DNA from: Mobula hypostoma
Lineage: Eukaryota
NCBI RefSeq assembly: GCF_963921235.1
Contig: NC_086097.1
Location: forward strand, 46,626,001-46,690,000
Length of the DNA: 64,000 bases
Direction of reading: 5' to 3'
Under the pieces are notes generated by a model. The model saw only the letters and a program-made list of their open reading frames with translations. It was not told where the DNA came from and ran no database searches. Shown piece after piece: positions 2,767-29,139 of this stretch (position 1 is the first letter of the stretch; every line of letters starts with the position of its first letter). The translations under genes were made by a program, and so were the position numbers.

Positions 2767-2907
2767 TTTCTCTCTGTTCAGAGCATCACAGTACCTGCTT
2801 GATCATAATCATCAAGTAAATGGTAAAATGAAAACATTACTGTAGAATGTATTTATAAATACTCCTATCAATAATCAAACAAACAGGAATCCAACGTCTT
2901 TCAGTGT

Positions 2908-3090
2908 GCAACACAACAAAATGCTGGAGGAACTCAGCAGGTCAGGCAGCATCTATGGAAAAAAATACAGTTGATATTTTGGGCTGAAGCCGACTGTACT
3001 TTTTTCCATAGTTGCTGCCTGGCCTGCTGAGTTCCTCCAGCATTTTGTGGTTGTTGCTCAGATTTCCAGCATCTGCAGATTTTCTCTTGT
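2908..3090. mobile_element. PLE-derived fold-back (palindromic) insertion
   Basis: 2908-2973 (gcaacacaacaaaatgctggaggaactcagcagg...tacagttg) is the near reverse complement of 2991-3057; plus arm continues into the PLE terminus gatttccagcatctgcagattttctc. Confidence 0.85.
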
Positions 3091-3099
3091 TTTTTCTTT

Positions 3100-6311: not shown

Positions 6312-6420
6312 CAGTAGCCCTGAAAAAGGGTCTCAGCCCGAAACGTCGACTGTACTCTTTTCCATAGATGCTGCCTGGCCTGCTGATTTCCTCCAGCATT
6401 TTGTATGTGTTGCTTTGGAA
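6312..6420 (+). mobile_element. PLE terminal fragment with degenerate hammerhead motif
   Basis: agcc-CTGAAAA-agggtctcagccc-GAAA-CGTC-gact followed by atagatgctgcctggcctgctga; core G8 mutated. Confidence 0.8.
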
Positions 6421-6436
6421 AGATTGGATAGGTTAG

Positions 6437-7442
6437 TTTTCTATATTTAACAGCATTCAACTTCCCATCAATACTGATCAAATTTCCAGTCCCTGCTGCT
6501 GGAAAGCATGATGCTACCTCAACCATATTTTACAGTTGAGATGGCGTTACTTGGCTAATGCGCAATATTCGATTTATGCCATATCCTTGCCCATAAAGAC
6601 TTTGCAAAGCATCACTGAGAAGATATTGTAAAGTGTGGAAGAATGTTTTGTGATTGGTTGAGACCAAAGTGGAACTTTTTGGCCTGAACATTAAGTGGTA
6701 CGTGTGACATAAATCTATTACTGCACACAAGCCAAGTAATACCATCCCTTCTGTCAACTATACTGGAGGTAACATCATGCTATGGGGATGCCTTTCAGCA
6801 GCAGGGACTGGAAATCTGGTCATGATTGATGGGAAGATGAACGCTGCTAAATACAGAGAGATCCTGGATAAAAACCTGCTAGCCTCTGCCAGAAAGCTTA
6901 AATTAGAGAGGAAGTTTGTCTTTCAGCAGGACAATAACCCAAATCTCACTGCCAGAGCAACCATGGAATAGCTTCAAATGAAGAAAACTGATGTCCTTGA
7001 GTGGCCCAGTCAGAGTCCTGAAAACTCAATGGAACATCTCTGGCAAGACCTCAAGATTGCTGTCCACCACTGCTCCCAGCTAACTTGCACAGCTCGAACA
7101 ATTTTGCAAGGAGGAATGGGTCAATCTTGCTCCATCATGATGTGCAAAGCTAATAGAGGCTTATCCAAAAAGAGTCCTGGCGGTAATAGCTGTGAAAGGT
7201 GGTTCAACTATGTATTGGGCAAAGGGGGATGAATACTCTTGAACTGCTGATATTACAGTTTCTGAACTTTTAATTCTTCACGTTTTACAACTTCCCATTT
7301 TTTGAAGCGTCTCAGCACAAAACATCCACTGTACTTTCTTTTGCATAGATGTTGCTTGGCCTGCTGACCTCCTCCAGCATTTTGTGTGCATTGCTTAGGT
7401 GAACAAAGGGTTGGGGGCTGAATACTTTTTCAAGGCACTGTA
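6437..7442 (+). mobile_element. Tc1-family DNA transposon, right half: broken transposase plus IR/DR-type right TIR ending CACTG|TA
   Basis: ETKVELFG, MLWGC..AAGTG, FQQDN, VLEWPSQSP, MEHLW motifs with an in-frame TAG at 6969; repeat ggggg.tgaatact.tt at about 7224 and 7413; PLE fragment (about 7310-7397) inside the TIR. Confidence 0.9.
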
Positions 7443-19855: not shown

Positions 19856-22650
19856 TCAAACCCTGCCTCCCACATAAGCCCCCACCTTAAATTCCTCCAT
19901 ATACCTGTCTAGCAGTCTCTTAAACTTCACTAGTGTATCTGCCTCCACCACTGACTCAGGCAGTGCATTCCACGCATGAACCACTCTCCAAGTAAAAAAC
20001 CTTCCTCTAATATCCCCCTTGAACTTCCCACCCCTTACCTTAAAGCCATGTCCTCTTGTATTGAGCAGTGGTGCCCTGGGGAAGAGGCGCTGGCTATCCA
20101 CTCTATCTATTCGTCTTACTATCTTGTACACCTCTATCATGTCTCCTCTCATCCTCCTTCTCTCTAAAGAGCAAAGCCCTAGCTCCCTTAATCTCTTATC
20201 ATAATGCATACTCTCTAAACCAGGCAGCATCCTGGTAAATCTCCTCTGAACCCTTTCCAATGCTTCCACATCCTTCCTATAGTGAGGTGACCAGAAATGG
20301 ACACAGTACTCCAAGTGTGGCCTAACCAGAGTTTTATAGAGCTGCATCATTACATCGTGACTCTTAAACTCTATCCCTCGACTTATGAAAGCTAACACGC
20401 CATAAGCTTTCTTAACTACCCTATCCACCTGTGAGGCAACTTTCAGGGATCTGTGGACATGTACCCTGAGATCCCTCTGCTCCTCCACACTACCAAGTAC
20501 CCTGCCATTTTCTTTGTACTCTGCCTCGGAGTTTGTCCTTCCAAAGTGTACCACCTCACACTTCTCCGGGTTGAACTCCATCTGCCACTTCTCAGCCCAC
20601 TCCTGCATCCTATCAATGTCTCTCTGCAATCTTTGACAATCCTCTACACTATCTACAACACCACCAACCTTTGTGTCGTCTGAAAAATTGCCAACCCACC
20701 CTTCTACCCCCACATCCAGGTCTTTAATAAAAATCACGAAAAGTAGAGGTCCCAGAACAGATCCTTGTGGACACCACTAGTCACAATCCTCCAATCTGAA
20801 TGTACTCCCTCCACCACGACCCTCTGCCTTCTGCAGGCAAGCCAATTCTGAATCCACCTGGCCAAACTTCCCTGGATCCCATGCCTTCTGACTTTCTGAA
20901 TAAAACTACCGTGTGGAACCTTGTCAAAAGCCTTACTAAAATCCATATAGATCACATCCACTGCACTACCCTCATCTATATGCCTGGTCACCTCCTCAAA
21001 GAACTCTATCAGACTTGTTAGACACGATCTGCCCTTTACAAAGTCAGGCTGACTGTCCCTGATCAGACCATGATTCTCTAAATGCCCAGAGATCCTGTCT
21101 CTAAGAATCTTTTCCAACAGCTTTCCCACCACAGACGTAAGGCTCACTGGTCTATAATTACGCGGACTATCCCTACTACCTTTTTTGAATAAGGGGACAA
21201 TTTTCGCCTCCCTCCAGTCCTCCGGTACCATTCCCGTGGACAACGAGGACATAAAGATCCTAGCCAGAGGCTCAGCAATCTCTTGCCTCACCTCGTGGAG
21301 CAGCCTGGGGAATATTCCATCAGGCCCCGGGGACTTATCCGTCCTAATGTATTTTAACAACTCCAACACCTCCTCTCCCTTAATATCAACATGCTCCAGA
21401 ACATCAACCTCACGTATATTGTCCTCACCATCATCAAGTTCCCTCTCATTGGTGAATACCGAAGAGAAGTATTCATTGAGGACCTCGCTCACTTCCACAG
21501 CCTCCAGGCACATCTTCCCACCTTTATCTCTAATCGGTCCTACCTTCACTCCTATCATCCTCTTTTTCTTCACATAATTGAAGAATGCCTTGGGGTTTTC
21601 CTTTACCCTACTCGCCAAGGCCTTCTTGTGCCCTCTTCTTGCTCTTCTCAGCCCCTTCTTAAGCTCCTTTCTTGCTTCCCTATATTCCTCAATAGACCCA
21701 TCTGATCCTTGCTTCCTAAACCTCATGTGTGCTGCCTTCTTCTACCTGACTAGATTCTCCACCTCACTGGTCACCCATGGTTCCTTCACCCTACCATTCT
21801 TTATCTTCCTCACCGGGACAAACTTATCCCTAACATCCTGCAAGAGATCTCTAAACATCAACCACATGTCCATAGTACATTTCCCTGCAAAAACATCATC
21901 CCAATTCACACCCGCAAGTTCTAGCCTTATAGCCTCATGATTTGCCCTTCCCCAATTAAACATTTTCCTGTCGTCTCTGATTCTATCCTTTTCCATGATA
22001 ATGCTAAAGGCCAGGGAGCAGTGGTCACTGTCCCACAGATGCTCACCCACTGAGAGATCTGTGACCTGACCTGGTTCATTACATAGTACTAGATCTAGTA
22101 TGGCATTCCCCCTAGTCAGCCTGTCCACATACTGTGACAGGAATCCATCCTGGACACACTTAACAAACTCTGCCCCATCTAAACCCTTGGAACTAATCAG
22201 GTGCCAATCAATATCGGGGAAGTTAAAGTCACCCATAACAACCCTGTTATTTTTGCACCTTTCCAAAATCTGCCTCCCAATCTGCTCCTCGGTATCTCTG
22301 CTGCTACCAGTGAGCCTATAGAATACCCCGAATAGAGTAACTGCTCCCTTCCTGTTCCTGACTTCCACCCAAACTGACTCAAAAGAGGATCCTGCTACAT
22401 TACCCACCCTTTCTGTAGCTGTAATAGTATCCCTGATCAGTAATGCCACCCCTCCTCCCCTTCTCCCCCCGCCCCATCCCTTTTAAAGCACTGAAATCCA
22501 GGAATATTGAGAATCCATTCCTGCCCTGGTGCCAGCCAAGTCTCTGTAATGGCCACTACATCATAATTCCATGTATGTATCCAAGCTCTCAGTTCATCAC
22601 CTTTGTTCCTGATGCTTCTTGCATTGAGGTACACGACCTTTAGCCCTTTT
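19856..22650 (-). pseudogene. CR1 ORF2 (APE endonuclease + RT), frameshifted into four pieces
   Basis: YLNARSI, AITETWL, MGDFN, SDH (APE); KSPGPDGI, NYRPVSLTS, DFSKAFDKV, NFSDDTK (RT; canonical KFADD altered). Confidence 0.93.
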
Positions 22651-22864
22651 ATCTGACTGTCTTTACACCGTTCATTCTGCTTCTCTTTCCTCAAAGCCTC
22701 TCTATATGTTAGATCTGGCTTTACTCCATGCATTTCTTTCACTGCTCTATCGCTCTGGGTCCCATCCTCCTTGCAAATTAGTTTAAACCCTCCCAAACAA
22801 TGCTAGCAAACCTACCTGCAAGGATATTGCTACCCCTCGAGTTCAGGTGCAACCTGTACAATCT

Positions 22865-23712
22865 CTACAGGTCCCATATTCCCCAGAAGAGATCCCAATG
22901 ATCCAAAAATCTAAAACCCTGCTCCCTGCACCAACTCCTCAGCCCCGCATTCAACTGCCATCTCCTCCAATTCTTACTATCACTGTCACGTAGCACTGGC
23001 AGCAATCCTGAGAACGCCACCCTTGAGGTCCTGTTCTTCAGCCTTCTGCCTAGTTCCCGATACTCACACTTCAGGACCTCATCCCTCTTCCTGCTTATGT
23101 CGTTGGTCCCTACATGTATCACGACTTCTGGTTGCTTTCCCTCTCGTACCAGGATGTCGTGCACCCGGTCAGAGACATCCCGGACCCTGGCACCTGAGAG
23201 GCAACAAACCATGCGGGTGTCCTTCTCACGTCCACAAATTCTCCTCTCTGCTCCCCTGACTACAGAGTCTCCAATGACGTCAGCTCTCCTCTTCTCCGTC
23301 CCACCCTTCTGCACCACAGGGTCAGACTCAGTGCCGGAGGCCCTGCCACCATGGCTCACAGCTGGTCGGTCGTCCCCTTCAACAGTATCCAGGATGGTAA
23401 ACTTATTATTCAGGGGAATGGCTACAGGGGTGCTCTGCACTACCTGTCTGCTCACCTTTGCTTTCCCCCCCTCTGACTGTCACCCAATGACCTGCTTCTG
23501 ACAGCCTAGGTGTGACTACCTCCCTGTAGCTCTCATCTATGACTGCCTCATTCTCACTTATGAGTCGAAGGTCATCCAGCTGCTGCTCCAGATTACTTAC
23601 ATGGTCTGCCCAGCTGTATGCACTTCTGGCAGATGTGACTCTGCGGGAGAGGGGCGTTCCCCCAAGACTGCCACATCTCACATGAGAGGCACATCACCGT
23701 CTCAGGAGGCAT
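22865..23712 (-). pseudogene. CR1 ORF1: zinc finger/leucine zipper + SGNH esterase-like domain
   Basis: CLSC...CQKC, LEQQLDDLRL, VIGDSVVRG, CLSGARV, IHVGTND motifs. Confidence 0.9.
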
Positions 23713-25010: not shown

Positions 25011-27092
25011 CAAATTCCATCTGTGACCCCAACAGATGGAATTTTGAACAAAATACATACTTTTACATATAACACTTAATTAATATATGTATACAACAAA
25101 GAAAGCTTAATCAAACAATATATTTACAATATTTTCAAATATTACTGAAATATTAAACACAACATTTGGTGCTGCTCATCATTTTCAGGGGAGAGGGTAA
25201 ATGAGATGAAGAACCCAAATAGCTAAATATTGCCATTGGAGGTGCACCACTTCTATTTTCCTAGAGGACGCAAAAAAAAACTCTTACAAATTCTTTCAGG
25301 ACCATGCTGCTTTCCTGTCTCTGTAATGAGTTCAACTGATATCATGGGTCGTGGATAACCTGTGCTCCTCCACCTTTGGGTTCTAAATCACTCATCAGCT
25401 GCATTGGTCCACCACTGATGCACTGGTGCCCATGGCTTCAGTTGTCAAGCCCCCAAGAATGTGAATTCCTTCCCTAGAGTTCTCCGTTTTTCTTTTTCCT
25501 CCTTTCATACTCAATTTAAAACCTCTCTAATTGCTCCATACCAAATGTTGTACTATGGCAGTCCTGTGAAGTCACCAGAGATGGTTTGCTACATTAGAGG
25601 ATACATGAAAACAACGTGTCGCTGTTGTGATGGAGCAGTTAATAGTTTAACACAAGCATTCAATTTCATGACAGCCAAAGGGAAAAATATGTAAAACACA
25701 AGCACAGTAGGTACTAAACAAATAATTGCTTAATTGTACATACAATCTGTCATTCTTCAGAAAATATATAGTTGTTCAAAAGGCAAATAAATTAACGAAT
25801 TTTCTGATATAAGTTAGGTGAAACTTGATCTGCTTGCCACTTTCCCATGTTAGTAAGTAGTTTAGGGACTGTGCAACCTTTGGGCAAATTTACAGATCAA
25901 ACAGTTATCAACATCTTGGGAGAGTTGGCTCTGACCAGAAATTGAAATAGAAGGTAAAACTGGATTCTATATACCTTCCCTCAAAGAACATAACCTGGTA
26001 TCATGCCTGGTTCCTCAAAGCCTCGGTACCATTTTTTGGATAAACATTCAAATGTAATGGAATTCTTACTGCTTGACTGAATGGCTGCAACAACACTCAT
26101 TCAGTGTCAAACATTTTGAGTGAATTATGATGAGAAACAGGTTTTTGAAAATATTTCTAACCTACTGACATTGGGTCCAGACAGAGATTTCAAGCAACTT
26201 CTCTATCATTTTGGGGAGTGGTTATGATCTCTTCTCTCTGCACTACTCATTTCCATTATTGTTACACCGCCAGACTCTGGTTTCCTGCAGAAACTGCAAT
26301 AATGTTCCAAAACATTCTCAAGTATCAAATAATATTTAGTTTTCGGGTGAGTTACCACAAGAATCTCCTTTCTCGCACCAATTTACCGCAACGCATTCCA
26401 AAAGGTTTTGCAGGAAAAGAGCACAAATGCTCAAGATTATGAAGGGATATTTAGGATATGATTCTAACCAATTATCACTCAATATACTGGATTATTAACT
26501 ATAGGAGTAAACCGGCAGGAACTGAGTTGAGGTCAATCTGACAGATAGATATTCTGATGATGAGAAAGCGAGGCTGATATTCTGGAGGGATGAAAATAGC
26601 GATCTCAAAGGTCTTCTTCACCTGGGTCCTGTGTCTTGTCTTGTTAGTGTGCTTTACCATGATGTAACACTTCTGATTCCTCACTTCTTTCTGATTTAGT
26701 TTCTGGGATTATAATATTGCGTTGAGGAATGACTATTCTGTTCACATTTTGCACAGCCTTGCCACTAAGTAGAAAGAAAATCTATTAAATATCAAAAGCA
26801 AAAATTCATGTTCAGTTCATTTTAAAGTGCCATAAGAACCCGAGGTAACAATGAATTGAAAAGGAAGACAATAAACTTTTCTAGCTCCCAGACTCAAGTA
26901 CCAACAAGTCAGGAAATTTCAAAAGGCAATTATAGCAAGGTCAGTCAATGTTTAATGTAATTTTTTTAAAAAATCTACATAAACAACATATTTGTAACAC
27001 GAGGAATTCTGCAGATGCTGGAAATTCAAGCAACACACATCAAAGTTGCTGGTGAACACAGCAGGCCAGGCAGCATCTCTAGGAAGAGGTAC

Positions 27093-27128
27093 AGTCGACG
27101 TTTCAGGCCGAGACCCTTTGTCAGTACT
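27093..27128 (-). ncRNA. Minimal type-I hammerhead ribozyme motif, mutated
   Basis: AGTA-CTGACAA-AGG gtctcgg CCT-GAAA-CG-TC-GACT; G8 to A and one stem I mismatch. Confidence 0.65.
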
Positions 27129-27530
27129 AACTGAAGGAAGAGCGAGTAAGAGATTTGAAAGTGGGAGGGGGAGGGGGAGATCCAAAATGATAGGAGAAGA
27201 CAGGAGGGCACGAACATTGACTTCTCTAACTTCCGCTAATGCCCCACCTCCCCCTCGTACCCCATCTGTTATTTATTTATATACACACATTCTTTCTCTC
27301 TCTCCTTTTTCTCCCTCTGTCCCTCTGGCTATGCCCCTTGCCCATCCTTTTCCCCTCTCCCCCCTTGTCTTTCTCCCCGGATCTCCTGTCCCATGATCCT
27401 CTCATATCCCCTTTGCCAATCACCTGTCCAGCTCTTGCCTCCATCCCTCACCCTCCTGTCTTCTCCTATCATTTTGGATCTCCCCCTCCCCCTCTCACTT
27501 TCAAATCTCTTACTCACTCTTCCTTCAGTT

Positions 27531-27567
27531 AGTCCTGACGAAAGGGTCTCGGCCTGAAACGTCGACT
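27531..27567 (+). ncRNA. Minimal type-I hammerhead ribozyme motif; predicted cleavage after C27563
   Basis: AGTC (stem I)-CTGACGA-a-AGG gtctcgg CCT (stem II)-GAAA-CG-TC^-GACT (stem I'); stem III reduced to palindromic ACGT; one extra A before stem II. Confidence 0.8.
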
Positions 27568-27859
27568 GTACTGCTTCCTATAGATGCTGCCTGGCCTGCT
27601 GTGTTCACCAGCAACTTTGATATTTGTAACACATGCTTTTTGGAATTTTTTTGACTTTAAGACCAGTTTGAGCAATTATTTTAACTAACCGACGCCACAT
27701 TAAACTGCCAGGAAGAAGAACTTCATGAATATGAAACATGCATTAACAGATTCCACACAGTGTTGACGAAAAACAGTGCATTGTGTACTTGCGCTCTTCC
27801 AGAAAGTACAGTACAAATCGATCTGTTGTTTCTATAGGCTTTTAACCATTCGTTCAAAC

Positions 27860-28360
27860 ATTGGTAATGGTTTAGTGTTGTCACATGCAGCAAGATAGGG
27901 TGAAAAGCTTCCCTTGCATAATGTTCATTCAGATCAAATCGATACACAGCGCATTGAGATAGGACAAGGCAAAGCGATAAAAATGCCAAATAAAATGTAG
28001 GGAAAGTGCTATACAGATAAATAATGAAGTATAAGGTCATAATGAGGTGGATTGTGAGATCAAGAGTCAGTCTTATTGTAAGAGGTCATTTCAAGGGTCT
28101 GATAACAATGAGATAGAAGCTGTCCTTCAGCCTGATGGTACATGTTTTCAAGCTTTTGTATCTTCTGCCTGTTGAGAGAGGGAAGAGAGAGTATCTGAGG
28201 TCGTTGATTATGCTGGCTGCTTTACTGAGGCAGTAAGAAATATAGATAGAATCCATAGAGAGGAGGCTAGATTCTGTGATGTGTTCACAACTCTCTGCAG
28301 TTTCTTGTCATCACATGCCAAGCCATTATGTATGCATGCAGACAGAATGCTTTCTAGATA
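27860..28360 (-). mobile_element. Decayed Rex1/Babar LINE 3' fragment
   Basis: LESILSACI...KKLQRVVNTSQ (ORF 28208-28393) parallels the Rex1 C-terminus at 29545-29889. Confidence 0.7.
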
Positions 28361-29139
28361 ATAAGATCTAATACATCTTTCAAAAAGTCTCATTAACCCT
28401 ATCAGACAAAGTCAGAAGCAGAGCACAGTAAGAGAAAGTAAATTTAATTAATTCTTTCTAATATCTGGTTAAGAATTTTTAACTTCTATTTCTACAGGTT
28501 TGCAAGATTCACGTGGATACGTTAAAGAAAAATTATACTTATTTGATTAAAAGTTTAATTTTATGCATTACTGTTGACTAAGTAATTAGAGCTGATACCA
28601 AAAGGGTCACTAAAATATTTGTAAGATAAAAAAACATTTGCTCAAAAATATTTTAGTCAGCCTTGCATAAGGAATAAACATAACTACTCGTGACTCATCA
28701 TCAAATCTCTGTGATGTTGCCATGGAGTCAAACATTGGGATAACAATGCAGATTACACTGATGTTTGTACTGTGCCTGAAGATTGCATGGTCATTAGTTA
28801 TAAAGCATGGATTTCATGCCGGGGTCACTGAAAGTGGGTGTGAGTGGGGAGATGGGGGGAAGAACCTCAATGCTTAGGACCTGCTCGATGCAATTTTCAG
28901 GTTATTTGTTAAGTGAGCATGTAGCTGCCCACCTGGAACAGGAACAGTCTACACTGCACGCAAATTGAATTTTACCCCAATTTAGGTAAAATTGGTACAG
29001 CGTTTAATTTGAGGGTTTCACTTAGACTCACAGTCCCACACTGTTCACCAGATCAGAAGATTGTTATAGCTTTCATATCAAAAACCAGAAGCTGTTGGGA
29101 TTACATAAAGCCTTTTATGAATTATGCATGCCCACAAGG

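Follow-up and report, generated by a model that had tools for sequence, protein, structure and literature searches.

A 5′-truncated insertion with inverted arms and hammerhead motifs in Mobula hypostoma, probably left by a Penelope-like element

Introduction

An insertion in the genome of Mobula hypostoma carries two inverted arms, each with a hammerhead ribozyme motif, and the question arises whether this arrangement serves a function or is what a transposable element left behind. The insertion lies in a 64,000-nt stretch of contig NC_086097.1 (positions 46,626,001 to 46,690,000), the whole of which was analysed and is called the window below; coordinates refer to it. According to the original prediction, a Penelope-like element (PLE) had been inserted here, whose hairpin would compete with ribozyme folding in a read-through RNA and could act as a self-silencing or ADAR/siRNA-generating cassette. 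Published PLE anatomy agrees with the proposed PLE identity, with the minimal hammerhead and with the reading as an inverted copy, but the functional part of the proposal for the most part did not hold. The insert is very probably the 5′-truncated leftover of a very high-copy, endonuclease-positive PLE, which was dead on arrival and decays neutrally.

Anatomy of the insertion

The insert comprises 619 nt (27001-27619) between perfect 13-bp direct repeats. Its inverted arms, 27033-27208 and 27451-27627, are 94.9% identical over 177 columns when the overlap with the target site duplication (TSD) is included; trimmed of this overlap they measure 168 nt (27041-27208) and 169 nt (27451-27619) and are about 95% alike. 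Coordinates and alignment agree with the size, the repeats and the arms of about 170 bp that had been predicted. The following parts were distinguished:

26988..27000, plus strand: left TSD, 13 bp, of which the last 5 nt (26996-27000) agree with the natural end of the PLE family as well
27001..27040, minus strand: 40-nt tail, present in the inverted copy only; fits the published one-sided tail of 30-40 bp
27041..27208, minus strand: left arm, an inverted, 5′-truncated copy of the element's 3′ end, 168 nt
27093..27128, minus strand: minimal hammerhead motif, degenerate (G8 is A, stem I pair broken at 27125)
27207..27208, no strand: head-to-head inversion junction, a 2-nt GG overlap common to both copies; family contigs are loose before 27207
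27207..27239, plus strand: final 10 codons and stop codon of the element's ORF (GTNIDFSNFR)
27240..27619, plus strand: 3′ UTR/pLTR of the sense copy, pyrimidine-rich; the right arm corresponds to its last 169 nt (27451-27619)
27531..27567, plus strand: minimal type-I hammerhead motif with intact core boxes; predicted cut at 27563/27564
27620..27632, plus strand: right TSD; over the first 8 nt it agrees with the beginning of the missing tail at 6/8

These parts are those of a PLE end. Besides the TSD, a 3′ end in sense orientation (10 codons plus the UTR), a shorter inverted 3′ end and a one-sided tail were observed, and 5′ truncation with an adjoining head-to-head inverted truncated copy is present, as is a hammerhead motif in the pLTR. 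The assignment to the PLE class is based on this anatomy, because the mere 10 codons left are too short for a protein search for RT or GIY-YIG domains. These codons are a putative C-terminus of a PLE GIY-YIG domain, probably of the Neptune type, whose endonuclease ends the peptide resembles. Upstream of 27207, the family consensus derived from loose contig ends stays in frame (G-S-L-Q-P-D, read by eye), so that 27207 is the point of 5′ truncation within the ORF. At the left boundary, 405 family contigs of run X1 (DNA) and 439 of run X5 (a second organism) fit back to 26996, and 132 and 96, respectively, to 27002. The tail belongs to the left arm only (40 nt, or 38 if the shared AT comes from the element) and the sense copy has none. 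The target flanks contain 76% AT, the TSD is short and the insert ends without poly(A); an unoccupied target site was not seen among the contigs of the sequencing runs. A frame of 132 codons without stops (26998-27396) runs through the inverted arm and the spacer, has no Pfam match and is probably incidental.

An inverted truncated copy and a tail of 30-40 bp at one end have been called typical of PLEs (Craig et al. 2021, PMC8557442), and the insert shares this tail with the endonuclease-positive (EN+) units described there. It also has their 5′ truncation, head-to-head inverted truncated copy, short TSD and AT-rich target, as described in the available text of PMC8557442 and PMC3846280. Compared to the units portrayed in that text, the insert lacks an upstream direct pLTR, retains hardly any of the ORF and has a 2-nt overlap instead of a palindrome at its inversion junction. 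The TSD is 13 bp long versus 8-10 bp in rotifer inserts, which are flanked by inverted pLTRs (Arkhipova et al. 2013, PMC3846280). Further similarities exist to Poseidon of Anolis carolinensis, for which the accessible part of Frangieh et al. 2024 (PMC11167929) describes two alternative 3′ ends separated by the tail, an AT-rich target and an ATT motif inside the TSD.

Relatives in the window and elsewhere

The window consists mostly of decayed LINE, LTR and DNA-transposon sequence. Related, older PLE ends are located at 2905-3091, 6315-6415 and 7305-7399. The first of them is an older fold-back end of a related subfamily (hairpin of -113 kcal/mol, tail on the right arm, very short loop); a TSD was not found for it. 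Pattern scans for relatives gave 0 matches in viral contigs, metagenomes and prokaryote genomes. The 19 loci recovered by a looser metagenome scan were all chance matches of 20-39 nt. Some neighbouring sequences may be mentioned in their own right: between 6315 and 7399, two decayed same-strand pLTR ends flank a Tc1-type transposase look-alike (by eye; no Pfam match), and the segment 6440-6857 between them has an inverted self-match of 67%. On the minus strand, 19856-23479 holds a CR1/L2-type LINE that is fairly complete, with an esterase-type ORF1, an endonuclease and RT pieces.

Long inverted termini inside a TSD and a second fold-back copy within the same window (2905-3091) would also be expected if the unit had not arisen by a single truncation event but were mobile in its entirety, as a non-autonomous element resembling a MITE or a retrozyme; PLEs are the source of retrozymes (bioRxiv 10.64898/2026.07.22.740005). 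However, the arms are asymmetric with the tail on one side, family contigs at 27207 run on into coding sequence and not into the inverted arm, and the copy at 2905-3091 has another junction and its tail on the opposite side. Moreover, retrozymes are tandem and not inverted (bioRxiv 10.64898/2026.07.22.740005), non-LTR retrozymes being defined by hammerheads in at least two consecutive tandem units, whereas the insert has one intact motif in an inverted arrangement. A unit moving as a whole is therefore very unlikely.

Abundance and age

In run X1, 146,787 contigs were placed on a stretch of 3 kb, and the summed depth reached 1e6-1e7 over the insert compared to about 16 on the flanks. Over 27240..27619, the summed depth of family contigs was about 1e5 times that of the flanks, which is a rough sign of abundance and not a copy number. 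The PLE family is extremely abundant. About 300 nt to the right of the insert, another abundant repeat (27901-28400) reaches a summed depth of up to 65,000.

In X5, as in X1, contigs extend into the insert from either flank. For the joints listed, they reach 30 and 28 letters into it in X5 and 22 and 25 in X1, the rule for a bridge being 31. Over 25801-27030 the second organism differs at 34 letters and over 27592-28066 at 12 letters, which is about 2.7%. It is likely from these contigs that the insertion is shared with the second organism. The two arms have diverged by 7-8 events in 169 nt, corresponding to 2.1-2.4% per arm. Since this value exceeds the approximately 1.35% per lineage determined for the flanks, the data fit an insertion that is older than the split from the X5 organism and that has been decaying without protection. 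Retention in two organisms would also fit selection.

Hammerhead motifs

As predicted, both arms contain a minimal type-I hammerhead motif, the plus core being intact and the minus copy having G8 changed to A. In the plus motif, stem I (27531-27534/27564-27567) encloses CUGACGA (27535-27541) and GAAA (27556-27559), the latter followed by CG and, at the cut site, UC; a palindromic ACGU stands where helix III would be. Minimal hammerheads (min-HHRs) of this kind occur on opposite strands 100-700 bp apart (PMC4209133). The plus copy has their CUGANGA and GAAA boxes, the palindromic positions 15.2-16.2, the NUH site and helices I and II. It lacks their G10.1-C11.1 pair combined with a single unpaired base. 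Two unpaired A precede stem II, and a G-U stands at 10.1-11.1 (P about 0.88); the alternative, A-U with one unpaired A, is formed with P about 0.11. The conserved G10.1-C11.1 reads G-U in both arms (U at 11.1), and the relative at 6315 in the window has C. The "one extra A" ascribed to the plus copy does exist at 27541, but minimal hammerheads normally have one base unpaired between 9 and 10.1 (PMC4209133), and the plus copy has two.

Regarding the minus copy, the original prediction had identified the change of G8 and overlooked further damage at 27125, where the stem I pair that adjoins the core is broken. With these two changes, the minus copy lacks the make-up of a min-HHR, falls outside a relaxed hammerhead descriptor and, in isolation, does not adopt the hammerhead fold. 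The hammerhead search of both strands that had been suggested recovered the motifs in part: the relaxed descriptor gave one match on both strands of the 64 kb, the plus motif, and 0 in 50 block shuffles, but the minus motif was missed and Rfam yielded no match at gathering thresholds. Among the 12 weak Rfam matches at E<=10 there was no hammerhead family; they were of microRNA type and driven by purine and pyrimidine tracts. An initial loose hammerhead pattern, which was discarded, gave 3 matches where 1.4 were expected and thus performed no better than chance.

Compared to the min-HHRs in the available text of PMC4209133, the motifs are likewise of type I, have a short helix I, no real helix III, a palindromic 15.2-16.2 and an unpaired base between 9 and 10.1, and are paired on opposite strands. 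They differ by a helix II of 3-4 bp, by the G-U at 10.1-11.1 in both arms, by the second unpaired A on the plus strand and by a minus copy devoid of G8 and of a stem I pair. The available text of PMC4209133 names no cartilaginous fish, although its supplements may list the motif of this family, and nothing specific on Penelope hammerheads in sharks was found in the literature covered, which comprised papers outside subscription. The Poseidon hammerhead and tail lie in the ORF start, whereas the motif of the insert is located about 290 nt past the stop codon (PMC11167929, in the part available).

Family data add to this picture. Among the variants listed for run X1, the pairing base at 27125 is present in 97% of the family depth. 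The extra A at 27541 is absent in 31-65% of the family depth in four runs, again among the variants listed (31-34% in the DNA runs, to which a counting ceiling applies), and there may be a subfamily that carries it. The copy alignment used for conservation of core and pairing comprised six segments of the window, most of them decayed. As to the two arms of the insert, 3 of 8 differences fall within the 37-nt motif where 1.75 are expected (P = 0.25), so that the motif shows no sign of protection.

Folding of the transcript

For the hairpin of the insert, a folding energy of -349.9 kcal/mol was calculated (z = -28 compared to 20 shuffles). As an isolated 52-nt RNA, the plus motif forms stem I with a probability of at least 0.93, and stem II forms as well. 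Within the full insert, by contrast, the probability of plus stem I is at most 1e-40, and imposing the hammerhead fold costs 65 kcal/mol. The order of transcription leads to the same result. The head-to-head position of the arms means that transcription of either strand yields the antisense arm first. As soon as the plus motif emerges, the left arm has paired with 114 of the 117 right-arm bases (stem I probability about 1e-35); for the minus strand, pairing involves 118 of 124 second-arm bases by the time the motif is complete. These values are from equilibrium folds of RNA prefixes and not from a kinetic simulation. Since the antisense arm precedes and pairs first, the hammerheads would not be able to fold in a read-through RNA. 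The competition between hairpin and ribozyme that had been proposed for such an RNA is contradicted by this order on both strands and by the gap of about 65 kcal/mol; in the models, the ribozyme is sequestered by the hairpin and does not compete with it. An RNA starting within the spacer could expose the plus motif (P 0.64-0.69).

Motifs of this type depend on a second sense copy as a partner for dimeric cleavage, and none in the 64-kb window passed the descriptor. Co-folding of two plus motifs resulted in a strand-swapped duplex (-41.1 versus 2 x -16.4 kcal/mol), which is not a model of the active dimer. For min-HHRs, no activity of monomers and low activity of dimers have been described (PMC4209133). 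According to the accessible text of PMC11167929, the motif of the anole element depended on the protein which that element encodes; insertion did not require the motif, and RNA-seq revealed no ends produced by it.

These results bear on the assumption that the insert has been co-opted as a regulatory cassette, with a host transcript running through it and hairpin and ribozyme folds competing for the control of cleavage or silencing. The intact core boxes of the plus copy and the probable retention of the insert in a second organism speak for such a role. They are opposed by the energy gap and the order of the arms, by the missing dimer partner in the window and the doubly broken minus copy, and by arm differences that are not depleted in the motif. 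Poor cleavage of such motifs even as dimers (PMC4209133) and the dependence of the anole motif on the element's protein (PMC11167929) weigh against it as well, as far as the text of these papers is available. Finally, the placement of the insert "inside a host transcript" gained no support from Pfam scans, which covered 150 of 154 ORFs of at least 58 aa between 22.0 and 53.5 kb and, outside 22-52 kb, 53 of 169 ORFs of at least 62 aa, ORFs of evident repeats having been dropped. Matches were obtained for 9 of these 203 ORFs, every one to a transposon-type domain, and a host gene was not detected among them, this being a weak test that misses short exons. A switch between hairpin and ribozyme is unlikely from these models and a co-opted cassette extremely so. 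The hammerheads are passengers of the pLTR, and a selected role is without support.

Editing and small RNAs

The predicted duplex consists of 164-173 long-range pairs, includes perfect helices of 65 and 45 bp and contains about 80 adenosines. If transcribed, it is plausible that this duplex of about 165 bp would be a passive substrate of ADAR or Dicer, like other inverted repeats. To this extent the idea of a self-silencing, ADAR- or siRNA-generating cassette is tenable, but what remains of it is a passive property that has already been reported for Penelope repeats. They rank with the repeats most strongly edited by ADAR in lizard and Xenopus tropicalis, and heavy hyper-editing is described for the brain of the elephant shark (Porath et al. 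2017, PMC5625713; PMC10636886); in rotifer and Drosophila, Penelope repeats yield small RNAs. The inverted or palindromic repeats hyper-edited by ADAR share with the insert the self-folding into long, near-perfect dsRNA, as the available text of these papers describes them. Their editing was observed, whereas the insert is known here from its sequence and predicted fold alone.

It is conceivable that the locus belongs to a long intron or a non-coding transcript, in which the hairpin is hyper-edited or diced as a by-product, with no role for the ribozyme. The properties of the duplex favour this possibility, as do the edited Penelope repeats of lizard and Xenopus tropicalis and the general hyper-editing in elephant shark brain (PMC5625713, PMC10636886). 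No host exon was identified among the scanned ORFs, a weak test that nevertheless counts against it, and we regard it as rather unlikely. It is compatible with a dead PLE, transcription being the only addition.

The presumed RNA runs X13 and X18 cover the family and have no contig on the unique left flank, which is uninformative either way. Variant places of the types A>G and T>C numbered 5 and 9 in the presumed RNA runs and 5 and 10 in DNA, in contigs whose 90% cut-off cannot reveal hyper-editing. Two other differences were noticed. Over the insert, DNA run X1 has 8 C>T variant places and the presumed RNA runs have 0 and 1; the latter also lack the extra A at 27541 more often (58-65% versus 31-34%). 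Copies that are transcribed may be of more recent origin and have undergone less CpG decay, or the counting ceiling in the DNA runs may account for the difference.

Origin of the inverted copy

Very probably, the element's RT-endonuclease made staggered nicks in the target and copied only the end of its RNA, twice. The way in which PLEs produce inverted copies and tails is described as unsettled (PMC8557442, PMC11167929, in the text available). A published alternative to the scheme outlined below is self-priming on an antisense template, which was argued from palindromic junctions; unlike these, the junction at 27207-27208 is not palindromic. For the anole enzyme, it has been described that both strands are nicked and extended, that synthesis starts at two internal sites bounding the tail and that a dimer is predicted (PMC11167929). 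This activity, observed in vitro, could give the layout of the insert. According to the accessible text of the same paper, Poseidon primes without target homology, whereas both junctions of the insert show short matches between target and template, 5/5 nt at the tail end and 6/8 nt at the tail start. The latter degree of matching to the tail start is attained by 0.5% of the 8-mers of the window, a value that does not allow for the free choice of end points; given this freedom, the matches may have arisen by chance.

On this basis, we tentatively propose that fold-back PLE insertions record a double target-primed reverse transcription, in which a dimeric RT-endonuclease nicks both strands and microhomology anneals them to two internal start sites on the RNA. 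One nick would have primed cDNA synthesis from the tail end and the opposite nick from the tail start, and the two short cDNAs would have grown toward each other until they were joined head to head at the GG overlap. The proposal, derived from one insertion, is possible although doubtful at present. It was not found in the literature covered, again papers outside subscription. If true, double priming would account at once for the inverted copy, for the tail at one end only and for the varying length of the TSD, and it would add microhomology-guided priming to the in vitro picture.

Significance

Taken by itself, this copy is of little weight. It is one PLE scrap among very many, and its fold-back layout, the pairs of hammerheads on opposite strands and the ADAR editing of Penelope repeats have each been described before. 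On the other hand, it is a clean example in which every junction can be read. The abundance of the family would permit a genome-wide census of such junctions and thereby a statistical test of double priming. If many such hairpins sit in introns, this lineage could carry a large load of dsRNA.
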